From NCBI GenBank assembly GCA_964456985.1, contig CAYWDH010000008.1:14243-78242 (forward strand): a DNA stretch of 64,000 bases, in the 5' to 3' direction. Positions 10,027-49,491 of this stretch are shown here, in pieces. Both the position numbers and the translations under genes were made by a program. The notes under the pieces are model-generated. The model had not been told where the DNA came from, ran no database searches, and worked only from the letters and a program-made list of their open reading frames with translations. Source of the DNA: an uncultured Eubacteriales bacterium. Its GTDB lineage: Bacteria; Acidobacteriota; Aminicenantia; Aminicenantales; Aminicenantaceae. Each line of letters starts with the position of its first letter. The first letter of the stretch is position 1.

Positions 10027-11334
10027 TTGAAACGAAAAAGCTCTGTTAATTTTGGGAATCTGCTTCTTTCTTTATCCGAGGCGTTGTATTTGGCTGGTCC
10101 TTTGGTAGCTCTGCATCAGGAAAGAGTAGCCTACATAGTATGGAGTATGGGAGTGGCAGGAGGACTCCCGGAAGACATGCTGGAAACTCATTTCACTGCG
10201 GCTCTCCTCCACGATATTGGAGCCATTTCCGTTGAAGAAAAGATTGCTATTCATAATTTCGAGGAGGAGAACACAGACCGGCATTGCATTTGTGGAGAGG
10301 TGCTGCTCAAAAGTATTCCCTGGTTTGAGGATATATCAAAGATCATCAGGCATCACCATAGAAAATGGCAGGAATGGGACGGTAAGATTGAAGAGCCTGA
10401 TATCCTTGGCGCACAAATGGTCTTCCTTGCTGATTATATCGAGCGTTTGGTTGACCGAAATCAATATATTCTCCATCAAAGCCAAAAAATCATTAGCAAG
10501 ATTACCTCATTATCCGGAACATATTTCCATCCCCTTGTAGTCGATTATTTTCTTGCGACATCCAAACGAGAGGAATTCTGGTTTGATTTGGTATCGCCCA
10601 GACTGTATTCCCTTCTCCTCAGTGAAGGACCTTACAGAAGGATGGAAATTGATATTTTAGAAATCACCCCGATCTCTGAACTTTTTAGGAGCATAATAGA
10701 TTTTAAATCCCGCTTTACAGCGACTCATTCTGCCGGAGTCGCTGCTTGTGCGGAATATCTTTCCAGACTTTATGGATTTACAGAAACTGAATCGCAACTT
10801 ATGAAGATCGCCGGCGATCTTCATGATATTGGGAAACTGGGTGTGCCAAACAAAATATTAGAAAAACCAGGTAAGCTCAATCAAGAAGAATTTGCGATAA
10901 TGAAATCCCACACGTATCACACCTATAATGTAATAAATACGATTGCCGGGCTTCGGCAGATTGCTGAATGGGCTGCATATCATCATGAGAGATTAGACGG
11001 ATCTGGCTATCCCTTTCATTGCAGTGCTGATGAACTCAATTCCGGGGCAAGGATCATGGCAGTAGCGGATATATTTACAGCCCTTGCTGAAGATCGCCCT
11101 TACAGAAAAGGGATGACCCGAAAGGAAATAAAAAAAATACTGAAAGATTTGGCTTCAAATTCTATCCTGGACGCTAGAATTGTTAATCTTCTTTTTAAAA
11201 ACATTGATCAGATATCAGCTTATGTAAAGAAAAAGCAGGCTTCGGCAAAGAAATTCTACGAACAGCAATTTGGCTATGTGGAGCCGAAAAAATTATCTTT
11301 TAATATAGGGGACGGGCCCGGGCATCATCAATAA
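10027..11334 (+). CDS. HD-GYP domain phosphohydrolase (probable c-di-GMP phosphodiesterase) with a second, degenerate N-terminal HD domain
   Basis: Motifs LHDIGKLGVP, HHERLDGSGYPF and VADIFTAL. TTG start is preceded by AGGAGG. The last 9 codons (IGDGPGHHQ-stop) are encoded by repeat copy 1. Confidence 0.9.
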   Translation: MKRKSSVNFGNLLLSLSEALYLAGPLVALHQERVAYIVWSMGVAGGLPEDMLETHFTAALLHDIGAISVEEKIAIHNFEEENTDRHCICGEVLLKSIPWFEDISKIIRHHHRKWQEWDGKIEEPDILGAQMVFLADYIERLVDRNQYILHQSQKIISKITSLSGTYFHPLVVDYFLATSKREEFWFDLVSPRLYSLLLSEGPYRRMEIDILEITPISELFRSIIDFKSRFTATHSAGVAACAEYLSRLYGFTETESQLMKIAGDLHDIGKLGVPNKILEKPGKLNQEEFAIMKSHTYHTYNVINTIAGLRQIAEWAAYHHERLDGSGYPFHCSADELNSGARIMAVADIFTALAEDRPYRKGMTRKEIKKILKDLASNSILDARIVNLLFKNIDQISAYVKKKQASAKKFYEQQFGYVEPKKLSFNIGDGPGHHQ

Positions 11335-11404
11335 TATCAATAACTTAACCATACTTTTCCACAGATCCTTACCCTGAAGAGCCGCTATTTTTGGGGGCAA
11401 AAAT
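11300..11404 (+). repeat. interspersed ~100-nt repeat, copy 1 (subfamily A)
   Basis: taatataGGGGACGGGCCCGGGcatcatcaataATATCAATAACTTAACCaTACTTTTCCACAGATCCTTaCCCTGaagaGCCGCtATTTTTGGGGGCAAAAAT. Aligns with copies at 13196, 37238, 39812 and 43121. Confidence 0.9.
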
Positions 11405-11478
11405 AAGAAAATCAGCGGTCTGAAGACAACAATTTAATTGATGATTGATTAAAATTACTAATTGGTCACTATCATTGG

Positions 11479-48219: not shown

Positions 48220-49401
48220 TTAAAGATCATTCCAAATGATTTGATAGCGCTTTAAGAATTTATATCCTGTCTCTTCATCATTGTACATGAGGTATATCTT
48301 ATCCTTAATCATTATTTCAGGTCTGAGGTTCAACCAGACTTTAGCCTCATAAAATCCTTTCTGATTGAAAATATCATATGCTGTAAGAATTTGATTTTCT
48401 TCCTCTTTCTCCTCATGGGTTTCTACCCATAGATTTCCTGAATCATCAACGAGCATGCGGGAAGTGATTGTTTTCACAGAAGGCATTGACAATCTTCTGA
48501 TCATCTTTTTTATGCCTTCTAAGGGGCGGTTGTCATAATAAGCATAAAACTCTTTGGCGTCTTTTTTAGTAAATGGGAGCGGTGTGTATGGCCGGTCAAA
48601 TCTTCTTATGACTTTGCCCTCCTGGTTATAGATTTCTACTATATATTTATCATTAACACAGTGAAATAAATGTTGTCTCAAAGGATCGCCCGCAAAAATA
48701 GAACGAGGTGAATGAGGGGGATAGACGGCCATGGAAGTAATTGATTTTCCCGTTTTTATAGTATGTGTTTTAGATTTTTCTACCCTGAATTCTCCGAATG
48801 AACGTATCTCATGGCCTTGAAAGTCATATTCTTTAACAAACAGCTTTCTCCCCTCCATGGGATTTTCTTCTCCGAATGCATACACAGTAAAAAGGCAGCT
48901 TGAGTCAGTGGCATAGATAAGTCCTCCCTGTCGCTCTGTCCAATGGTAACTTTCTATGTAATTACCCTTTATGTCAAATAAAGTTATCCTTCTTGTATTT
49001 CTATCCATTACAAACAGCCTTCCATCAGGTAGAATAGTCAAATTTCCAATAAATATAAACTCACCAGGGCCGTCGCCTTTTTTACCGATAGATTTGATGT
49101 ATTTGCCGTTCGAATCAAAGATTTTAATGGATTGATCTAGATAATCCGCGATGTATATTCTTTCTTTTTGATCAACGGTGAATTTTTGGGGGCGAAATAA
49201 CATATCATACTCTTGCCCTCCTATAGATAGATCCTCCTCAAAAGTGATTGCCTTATCGGGATGTATAGGTGTTCCTGTATTATGAACATACTGGATTCCA
49301 TCAATAGTCTCAATACTGGCTTCATTTTCTAGCTTTTTGTTGCACCCAGAAAGAATCAAAAGAAGTGTGATTGTGATAATAATAAGGATATTCCTCATCA
49401 T
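48220..49401 (-). CDS. NHL-type beta-propeller family lipoprotein (paralog 11)
   Basis: LILSGCNK lipobox. Motifs IDGIQYVHN, FDSNGKYIKSIGKKGDGPGEF and tail GYKFLKRYQIIWNDL. First gene of the five-gene operon. Confidence 0.85.
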   Translation of the reverse strand: MMRNILIIITITLLLILSGCNKKLENEASIETIDGIQYVHNTGTPIHPDKAITFEEDLSIGGQEYDMLFRPQKFTVDQKERIYIADYLDQSIKIFDSNGKYIKSIGKKGDGPGEFIFIGNLTILPDGRLFVMDRNTRRITLFDIKGNYIESYHWTERQGGLIYATDSSCLFTVYAFGEENPMEGRKLFVKEYDFQGHEIRSFGEFRVEKSKTHTIKTGKSITSMAVYPPHSPRSIFAGDPLRQHLFHCVNDKYIVEIYNQEGKVIRRFDRPYTPLPFTKKDAKEFYAYYDNRPLEGIKKMIRRLSMPSVKTITSRMLVDDSGNLWVETHEEKEEENQILTAYDIFNQKGFYEAKVWLNLRPEIMIKDKIYLMYNDEETGYKFLKRYQIIWNDL

Positions 49402-49452
49402 TCCCTTTTTACTGATTTATTATATATGACTTAGCAGTCTTAAGTAAAGGGA

Positions 49453-49491
49453 TTAAATAAAGGGGACGTCATTATTTTGGGGGTAAAAATC
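49453..49491 (+). repeat. internally deleted mini-copy of the interspersed repeat
   Basis: The head TTAAATAAAGGGGACG is joined directly to the tail TCATTATTTTGGGGGTAAAAATC. The central 65 nt or so are missing. Confidence 0.6.

Follow-up and report, generated by a model that had tools for sequence, protein, structure and literature searches.

Why should an interspersed repeat of about 100 nt stand between gene modules, always in the same orientation, and what, if anything, put it there? The question arises in a stretch of 64,000 nucleotides (the window), positions 14,243 to 78,242 of contig CAYWDH010000008.1 (here C8) in assembly GCA_964456985.1 (here G000; 3.03 Mb in 102 contigs), from an uncultured bacterium of the Aminicenantaceae; window coordinates equal C8 coordinates minus 14242. 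A first reading of the letters (the original prediction) had described five full copies of the repeat and an internally deleted sixth, all on the + strand, in two subfamilies, and had offered three kinds of explanation, namely a repetitive extragenic palindromic (REP)-like or miniature inverted-repeat element, a structured RNA or terminator-insulator, or a recombination site used to shuffle modules. The description itself holds up well. The six stretches (c1 to c6) align as a single family with MAFFT and are also recovered by a repeat finder (families D1, D3 and D4), all lie on the + strand where they had been placed, the subfamilies are real (c3 and c5 are 95% identical, c4 85%), the conserved blocks had been listed correctly, and Pfam bears out the modules as HD-GYP, B12-radical SAM, DUF5128/NHL propeller, TPR, PadR and MacB/FtsX permease genes. 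As to the explanation, the repeat family very probably consists of the cognate ends of a Y1/HUH transposase that looks domesticated. In full, and with a probability of about 0.72, we read it as the terminal inverted repeat (TIR), in dispersed and mostly solitary form, of a transposase of the REP-associated tyrosine transposase (RAYT)-like Y1/HUH kind whose gene is present once and inherited vertically, in the arrangement known as a TIRtron and with the mechanism outlined below; for the mechanistic part, in which the enzyme still acts on the copies and drives the turnover of gene cassettes, the odds are close to even.

The family extends well beyond the window. Iterated nhmmer searches of the whole assembly, run to convergence as the copy-number check proposed earlier, recovered 28 copies of a core of ~99 nt on contigs C6 (2), C8 (5, the window copies), C10 (12), C18, C21 (4), C23, C24 and C37 (2). 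From its 5' end the element comprises an AT-rich lead-in (often TTAATAG), an invariant 14-nt tip (GGGGACGGGCCCGG) and an AT-rich stretch that usually contains ATCAATAAnnTAAC, followed by an invariant 9-nt box (TTTTCCACA), 6-8 variable nt, (C/T)TACCCTG, a further ~10 variable nt and a T5-loop-A5 tail. The repeat is not a product of chance, because the reversed pattern (spacer N25-45) had 0 matches in a sample of 61 genomes, as against 25 matches of the true pattern in G000 alone.

The original prediction saw no transposase, which is true of the window and false of the genome. The search for a Y1 enzyme that it had proposed, run over the genus with the Pfam profile Y1_Tnp, was positive on contig C21 (G000:C21:4877-5209), where a single-copy gene, RAYT-A (4841-5587), encodes a protein of 248 aa. 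The gene lies between two inverted copies of the element, at 4632-4736 (+) and 5567-5663 (-), with tips outward and tails toward the gene, the last codons of which run into the tail of the right-hand copy. This inverted arrangement recurs in at least four species, the downstream tip standing 75-77 nt past the gene end in G000, G004, G005 and G001 and the upstream tip ~205-208 nt before the start in G000 and G005; in G003 an incomplete gene at the edge of a contig directly adjoins a copy, and in G008 the upstream side is rearranged. The protein carries the HUH motif SNHIHLL and a tyrosine in WEDRYHA, with His60/His62 and Tyr104 invariant or nearly so in 30 homologues. It scores 40.3 bits with Pfam Y1_Tnp (cut-off 23), and among NCBIfam models it fits REP_Tyr_transpos (66.8 bits) far better than transpos_IS200 (19.5 bits, cut-off 55). 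A sequence search of the PDB gave no significant match; the fold search alone matched, the AlphaFold2 model (pLDDT 85) lying closest to 4ER8, the E. coli RAYT with a REP hairpin (E 5e-7), and next to the TnpA proteins of IS200, IS608 and ISDra2. The wider family numbers 6751 database proteins at E<=1e-10, which their sources label 'transposase' or 'RayT'; the member described here is longer than E. coli RAYT (165 aa). Each genome has one RAYT-A, at a syntenic locus in G000 and G004, and the gene is intact in five species, with dN/dS of 0.11-0.21 and dS of up to ~1.6.

Gene and repeat are found together. Across the same 61 genomes, all seven with a RAYT-A orthologue (at least 66% identity) carry the pattern of the window family (family A), with 25, 21, 15, 6, 5, 3 and 1 matches, as against 2 of the 54 without an orthologue, with a single match each, an association that amounts to few independent events because one clade underlies it. 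Two congeners have neither orthologue nor repeat. Eight relatives of G000 carry 1 to 21 matches, and among 185,579 species genomes (one each) the pattern is confined to the same eight Aminicenantes metagenome-assembled genomes (MAGs). Moreover, RAYT-A has company within the genus. In four genomes, inverted copies of a distinct though related element, with the tip GGGGACGGACCAT, stand on either side of a paralogue, RAYT-B (C6 8670-9341 in G000, 54% identical to RAYT-A), and a third Y1 lineage (~25% identical), present in G002, G006 and G007, is flanked by inverted repeats starting GGGGACAG, GGGGACAC or GGGGACGG. Three Y1 lineages in one genus, each with GGGGAC-tipped ends of its own, support the view that the tip is a recognition tag.

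Several observations on these other tipped repeats may be set beside the above (loci in Table 1). Family B, the element of RAYT-B, has four copies in G000, two of which flank RAYT-B in inverted orientation; its sequence has the tip GGGGACGGACCAT(A/G)G and an ATCAA(C/T)AAG(T/A)TA stretch, without the TTTTCCACA box. The loci of the third lineage bear inverted repeats of the GGGGACAGTTCACCTATTTACCCTA type, with three tandem repeat copies upstream in G002. Another repeat, GGGGACG(Y)(Y)CCAT(W)AGG(Y)ACCACCCTAT.., is likewise GGGGACG-tipped and has about eight copies in G000, two of them just past the end of the window; no Y1 gene of a matching lineage was seen in the G000 assembly.

Could the element instead be a chromosomal site of the host, in which an integration host factor (IHF)-like bend, a DnaA-box-like TTTTCCACA and a GC clamp form a boundary, an insulator or an antisense promoter, the Y1 gene being linked to it only secondarily? 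The spacing of its motifs is certainly regular. TTWTNCACA, which we take to be the DnaA-box consensus, lies at offset 45-46 in 56/59 copies, and WATCARNNNNTTR, presumably the IHF consensus, at offset 27 in 23/59 (37 by loose match), including all five window copies; either motif occurs in under 1-3% of random 110-nt windows. Placement at the 3' ends of genes would also suit such a site, as would a promoter-like motif on the reverse strand of c3 to c5 (TGGAAA-18-TATGAT with an upstream TG), which on its consensus match would be an outward-facing sigma-70-like site transcribing antisense into the upstream gene. These likenesses, however, are ones of sequence only, and the total count of promoter-like sites equals the shuffle expectation. 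Limited to eight MAGs of one small clade and absent from two congeners, the element is unlike an essential host site, its copies are concentrated in variable accessory regions, and a host site would leave unexplained why three separate Y1 lineages each have GGGGAC-tipped inverted repeats of their own. A host site is accordingly a very unlikely account of the family.

The placement of the copies also qualifies what was first said of their orientation. That they keep one strand regardless of the flanking genes is only partly true: genome-wide, 21 of the 28 touch or run over the stop codon of an upstream open reading frame (ORF) that points the same way, one more, on C37, sits ~15 nt after the 3' end of a tRNA gene, and the rest lie in divergent gaps. 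The genes next to odd-oriented copies are ordinary accessory genes, with no transposases among them. By GC skew, the G-rich strand of the contig carries 21/28 copies (p = 0.006), a bias that has the sign expected if the written strand were the lagging-strand template, as for IS608-type elements, but that is inseparable from co-orientation with genes. Several window genes end inside the element, and their C-termini and stop codons are therefore element-derived, which has consequences for annotation. The final ~9 codons and the stop of the HD-GYP gene lie within c1, and the propeller gene before c4 stops within the first tip re-copy of that element. In the TPR gene the tip region of c3 has replaced the last 4 codons and also supplies the stop codon; the orthologues in G004 and G008 keep a native C-terminus (..KKQL*), with no element after it.

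What happens at the elements is best seen by comparing sister species, between which blocks of element plus cargo have been inserted, deleted and permuted at the elements. On C37, G000 has a tRNA gene, an element (E1), a 1.6-kb membrane protein gene and a second element (E2), where G004 has the tRNA gene and one element that combines the left flank of E1 with the 3' half and right flank of E2. A 2-kb block on C21, consisting of an element and two genes, is missing from G004, and on C10 a permease gene is followed in G000 by an element (+) with 2.7 kb and then an element (-), versus the element (-) alone in G005. Single-gene modules with their own 3' element are permuted between C10 of G000 and C25/C44 of G004. 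In the window, the order TPR, c3, two propellers, c4, PadR-permease, c5, propeller is represented in G004 by TPR, one paralogous propeller (25% identical) and an element, and in G008 by unrelated DNA. At the c2 orthologue of G004, ~4.3 kb of DNA on the tip side (window ~8900-13190) is missing and the tip has been re-copied three times. Beside that tip, only the first 22 codons of a zinc alcohol dehydrogenase-like gene are left (G004 L009 on C27, ~8170-8270, versus window 8827-8900), a truncated gene remnant at the deletion edge. On C24, a ~0.9-kb gene just downstream of an element is tandemly duplicated in G000 (5150-6075 and 6882 onward) relative to the corresponding locus L003 (G004 C5). Overall, 13 of 22 synteny breaks against G004 have an element no more than 150 nt away, compared with 22 of 111 intergenic gaps that contain one (Fisher p = 4e-4), an enrichment that is somewhat overstated because the compared loci were chosen for holding elements. 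The proposal that the repeat marks and shuffles modules thus stands as an observation, and hypervariable propeller and permease cassettes have the element at their borders; the data do not support a dedicated system of site-specific recombination, because no integrase lies nearby.

The elements themselves carry a second kind of scar. At many independent loci the 5' junction holds two to four tandem re-copies of a few flank bases together with the first bases of the tip (c3, c4, c5 and others), and many of these re-copies end at GGGGAC or GGGGACG. It is because such partial re-copies precede the cores, from 37238 and 39812, that c3 and c4 were first drawn longer. The break in c6 also falls right after GGGGACG. 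This copy is an old relic, since it is conserved with substitutions in the sister genome G008; G004 lacks both it and three propeller genes, and a search for further short forms that, like c6, join tip to tail found none. Together, the re-copies and c6 point to a recurrent break or stall at GGGGACG, and a break at that position fits a nick by an HUH enzyme or a protein-bound replication obstacle as candidate causes. The copies are, in addition, mosaics, in which the 5' module (tip to box) and the 3' module (CCCTG to tail) have different affinities, and gene conversion between the conserved blocks explains this mosaicism adequately.

Much of this could be read as the slow decay of an old family, the copies being dead relics of an ancient burst, the Y1 enzyme domesticated or acting on its own ends only, and the repeats now just patches of ~100-bp homology for RecA-type recombination. 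Such a history would account for the many copies that are orthologous across species at dS ~0.4, for the failure to find a clean solo insertion or an empty site, for the decay of c6 in two species, for the identity of the E1 and E2 5' halves on C37, and for the orthologous pair C24/L003, which differs by a swap of the 40-nt 3' module alone, between conserved blocks. It would not lead one to expect a 14-nt tip and 9-nt box that stay invariant in paralogous copies across species while the intervening sequence drifts, which argues for ongoing selection or homogenisation and not for decay. Nor does it sit well with a transposase under purifying selection, with copy numbers of 1 to 25 among congeners, or with tandem re-copying of the tip that is specific to each locus, often ends exactly at GGGGAC(G) and is of a kind that plain homology does not predict at all. 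We consider a family of dead relics unlikely.

Folding bears on two other explanations, a structured RNA or terminator and an integron-like attC analogue or other site-specific recombination site. Within the copies there is no Rfam match, either at the gathering threshold (tRNA only) or at E<=1 (a chance snoRNA match lies outside them); RNAalifold found no consensus fold for the 28 copies on either strand; and as single-stranded DNA, whichever strand is taken, the five window copies form folds that at best equal, and mostly fall short of, those of dinucleotide shuffles (z +0.1 to +1.4). The original prediction, which saw no obvious strong hairpin beyond a palindrome, needs one correction: there is a real, small hairpin, the T-run/A-run tail, which is the only real structural feature of the element. 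Almost without exception the best hairpin of the 3' half takes the form (N)T5(G)-loop-(C)A5(N'), its outer pair covaries (cTTTTT..AAAAAg, aTTTTT..AAAAAt, gTTTTT..AAAAAc), extensions reach 10 bp, and stems of at least 6 bp occur in 29/62 copies versus 8% of shuffles. The lack of a T-tract after it sets it apart from a canonical terminator, and no terminator-like match was found within the copies. As for an attC-like site, the same-orientation arrays, the abutment of the element on the stop codon of the cassette gene and the one to two genes between copies are all suggestive, but the element has no imperfect palindrome, and of five PF00589 recombinase genes (on C3, C4, C5, C14 and C17) none is on an element-rich contig and two are Xer-like and universal in the genus. 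With no integrase nearby and no palindrome we set the integron idea aside, and find it and the RNA or terminator option scarcely credible. Two further candidates were rejected, a GGGGA/TCCCC pairing in c3 to c5, which had no covariation support from the other copies, and a protein-coding reading, since conservation is flat across codon positions and ORFs just run into the element.

In the mechanism that we favor for the transposase and its TIR, the enzyme, acting in trans, would recognise the elements in single-stranded form, the GGGGACG tip serving as the recognition or cleavage tag, in the role that GTAG has in REPs and GGGGWSAS in published TIRs, and the T5/A5 tail being the hairpin that the enzyme binds. 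Direct copies on the same strand could then play the parts of left and right end in an IS200/IS605 element, so that element plus cargo might be cut out or inserted beside another element, and the pair around the transposase gene, being inverted, would keep that gene from moving and from multiplying. The ~100-bp repeats are in addition stretches of shared sequence on which ordinary recombination and gene conversion can act. The outcome visible in the window is a set of elements at the 3' ends of genes, some of which have lost their last codons to the element and taken their stop codon from it; the elements bound propeller, PadR-permease and radical SAM cassettes that vary in presence and order among sister species. 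Our observations establish the pairing of the repeat with the Y1 gene as its cognate element, the co-occurrence of the two, the cassette polymorphisms and the re-copying of the tip; we infer continued activity of the enzyme on the elements, the position of its cut, and its role, in place of RecA-type recombination, in making the rearrangements. A bolder version would make elements and enzyme a single-stranded-DNA system of gene-cassette exchange, a functional analogue of the integron built on a RAYT-like transposase, in which any direct-orientation segment of element, cargo and element would leave as a circle and be re-inserted beside another element, and in which tip re-copies would be marks left where cleavage at GGGGAC^G was aborted and the ends rejoined; this version is doubtful.

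A number of points weigh against the transposase reading, in addition to the single clade behind the co-occurrence and the choice of loci behind the break enrichment. RAYT-A scores 66.8 bits with NCBIfam REP_Tyr_transpos, below the curated cut-off of 80. The element has no strong subterminal hairpin of the kind that known Y1 enzymes bind, its sole hairpin being weak, AT-rich and ~85 nt from the tip. The GGGGACGG of families A and B fits the GGGGWSAS of published TIRs at 7 of 8 positions, with G for A at position 7. Among 11 loci in five sister genomes, searched for empty sites with the joined 500-nt flanks of 11 copies (c1, c4, c5 and two C10 copies had no flank orthologues), there was no case in which a bare element of ~100 nt had been cleanly gained or lost between conserved flanks, which gives simple transposition of solo copies no support. 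Turnover, moreover, is slow, because many copies are orthologous between species. Finally, E1 and E2 on C37 share an identical 56-nt 5' half, and this, together with the mosaic copies, is what homologous recombination or gene conversion would give.

The window copies, their neighbours and the other loci are collected in Table 1. c1 lies between convergent genes, c2 in the divergent gap between the start of the radical SAM gene and a propeller gene, and c5 between a permease gene and a convergent propeller gene. A TATAGGGGACGA sequence directly on the TAG stop of a - strand ORF is a possible solo tip relic; chance could account for it, given that GGGGACG outside the family shows no genome-wide excess (133 observed vs ~154 expected). 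The window also holds two direct repeats separated by ~3.8 kb (94% identity over 72 nt, then 73% over 92 nt), which have no relation to the element and probably mark where duplicated genes end, and a tRNA gene (70.6 bits) that is unrelated to the repeat.

Table 1. Positions of the repeat copies, neighbouring genes and related loci (window coordinates unless a contig is named)
Feature	Position	Strand	Details
c1 (subfamily A1)	11300..11410	+	core 11307-11403; tip GGGGACGGGCCCGG 11308-11321; IHF-like TATCAATAACTTA 11335-11347; box TTTTCCACA 11355-11363; CCCTG 11372-11376; tail hairpin TTTTTGGGGGCAAAAA 11388-11403
c2 (subfamily A1)	13196..13300	+	core 13204-13300; tip 13205-13218; box 13252-13260; tail 13285-13300
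c3 (subfamily A1')	37238..37364	+	core 37266-37363; tip GGGGACGGGCCTGG 37269-37282; box 37315-37323; tail 37349-37364; partial tip re-copies 37238-37268, with GGGGACG 37245-37251
c4	39812..39947	+	core 39849-39946; tip 39852-39865; box 39898-39906; tail 39932-39946; two partial tip re-copies (GTTAATAGGGGGAC AAA GTTAATAGG AAA) 39812-39848
c5	43121..43235	+	core 43140-43235; tip 43141-43154; box 43187-43195; tail 43221-43235; flank-and-tip motif AATAAATAG present twice
c6 (relic)	49453..49491	+	core 49462-49489; GGGGACG 49462-49468 joined to tail TTTTGGGGGTAAAAA 49475-49489; ~75-nt middle deleted
Tip-bearing sequence of element			TTAATAGGGGGACGGGCCCGG
HD-GYP gene	10027-11334		beside c1
B12-radical SAM gene	11479-13056	-	between c1 and c2
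Propeller gene	13385-14602		beside c2
TPR gene	35647-37245		beside c3
Propeller gene	38655-39836		beside c4
PadR gene	39957-40424		beside c4
MacB/FtsX permease gene	40397-43117		beside c5
Propeller gene	43255-44430		beside c5
Promoter-like TGGAAA-18-TATGAT in c3, c4, c5	37292-37321, 39875-39904, 43164-43193	-	consensus match, with upstream TG
Possible solo tip relic TATAGGGGACGA	60093-60104	-	on TAG stop of ORF 60093-60914 (-)
Direct repeats	3143-3305, 6937-7156		
tRNA gene	18124-18197	+	
Tip re-copies, G004 L001			..TTTAATAGGGGGAC GAG TTTAATAGGGGGACGGG
Tip re-copies, G004 L009			TTGAAATTGGGGGA x3
Tip re-copies, G005 C198			GGGGACGAT GGGGACGATTAT GGGGACGAT GGGGACGGG
Family B copy	G000 C6 8350	+	
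Family B copies	G000 C6 9490, 32960, 36073	-	
Third Y1 lineage, L029	G002 C33 3345-5255		
Third Y1 lineage, L022	G007 C105		
Third Y1 lineage, L023	G006 C191		
ACCACCCTAT repeat	C2 133129, 138701, 138937; C7 20600; C8 80362, 84240; C26 38394; C60 11556		C8 copies just past window end

How, then, does the family stand to known systems, and why does it matter? The likely enzyme partner of the repeat can now be named. If that enzyme moves element-plus-cargo units, it would represent a new HUH-transposase route for the shuffling of cassettes, and if the cassette-exchange version were true, such exchange would be a source of diversity in the accessory gene arrays of these Aminicenantes, among them those for NHL-propeller lipoproteins and MacB-type permeases. 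Bacterial interspersed mosaic elements (BIMEs; RIB/RIP) comprise an IHF site flanked by REPs, and the family resembles them in having an IHF-consensus-like motif inside an intergenic repeat at gene ends, without the flanking REP palindromes. The attC sites of integrons fold as imperfect palindromes, with IntI adjacent; same-orientation arrays separating one- or two-gene cassettes recall them, but there is neither an attC-type fold nor an integron integrase. With the IS200/IS605 elements (IS608, ISDra2), single-strand transposons of the 'peel and paste' type, the system shares the HUH/Y1 fold, the idea of two like-oriented ends on the same strand defining a mobile unit, and a G-rich-strand bias (21/28) of the sign expected for action on the lagging-strand template. 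It differs from them in that the gene is single-copy and lies between inverted identical ends, with no distinct left and right ends bearing strong subterminal hairpins.

Among the options first offered, a REP-like element comes closest, in that a Y1 gene is flanked by inverted copies, although the palindrome, tag and doublets of REPs are missing. REPs are GC-rich palindromes of 20-40 nt with a GTAG or CGTC tag, usually found in inverted doublets, or REPINs (Bertels & Rainey 2011, PMC3116915; Bertels et al. 2017, PMC5581495), and the 28 copies described here fall in the range of 16-mer frequencies given for RAYT groups 1, 4 and 5 (12-31; PMC5581495). The likeness to REP/REPIN-RAYT systems lies in a single-copy, vertically inherited Y1 gene under purifying selection, with inverted flanking copies of a repeat that is over-represented extragenically, and in a best fold match that is the E. 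coli TnpA-REP structure itself (4ER8; PMC3479197). Unlike a REP or REPIN, the element is non-palindromic and forms no doublets, its tip contains GACG (the reverse complement of CGTC) without an adjoining palindrome, and the protein scores under the NCBIfam RAYT equivalog cut-off.

The closest relatives are the TIRtrons, in which long TIRs without relation to REPs enclose a RAYT-like gene ('TIRYT'), some of the TIRs forming moderately abundant repeat families and some sharing GGGGWSAS; a sharply defined TIRYT group is described in Acidobacteria (Di Nocera, De Gregorio & Rocco, 2013, BMC Genomics 14:522, PMC3733652). TIRtrons share with our system a single RAYT-like HUH/Y1 gene between long non-REP inverted repeats, a TIR that is also an interspersed family, and a protein longer than classical RAYTs, and the GGGGACAG of the third lineage fits GGGGWSAS at 8 of 8 positions (PMC3733652). 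In points that the text consulted does not describe, the Aminicenantes family differs from published TIRtrons in its ~100-nt repeat, which has essentially no self-complementarity and keeps two invariant blocks a fixed distance apart, and in its copies, which are nearly all direct-orientation singletons and not dimers or clusters, dock on stop codons, bound species-variable cassettes and have a tip that is tandemly re-copied. One outcome that the original prediction had named as counting against it, a match to a known REP family, holds in spirit, the architecture being of the published TIRtron/TIRYT type (PMC3733652). Because that architecture matches and the classical REP/REPIN features are absent, we file the element as a TIRtron-type repeat family: the kind is already known, the member is new, and a well-documented example from Aminicenantes is added to a thinly described class.

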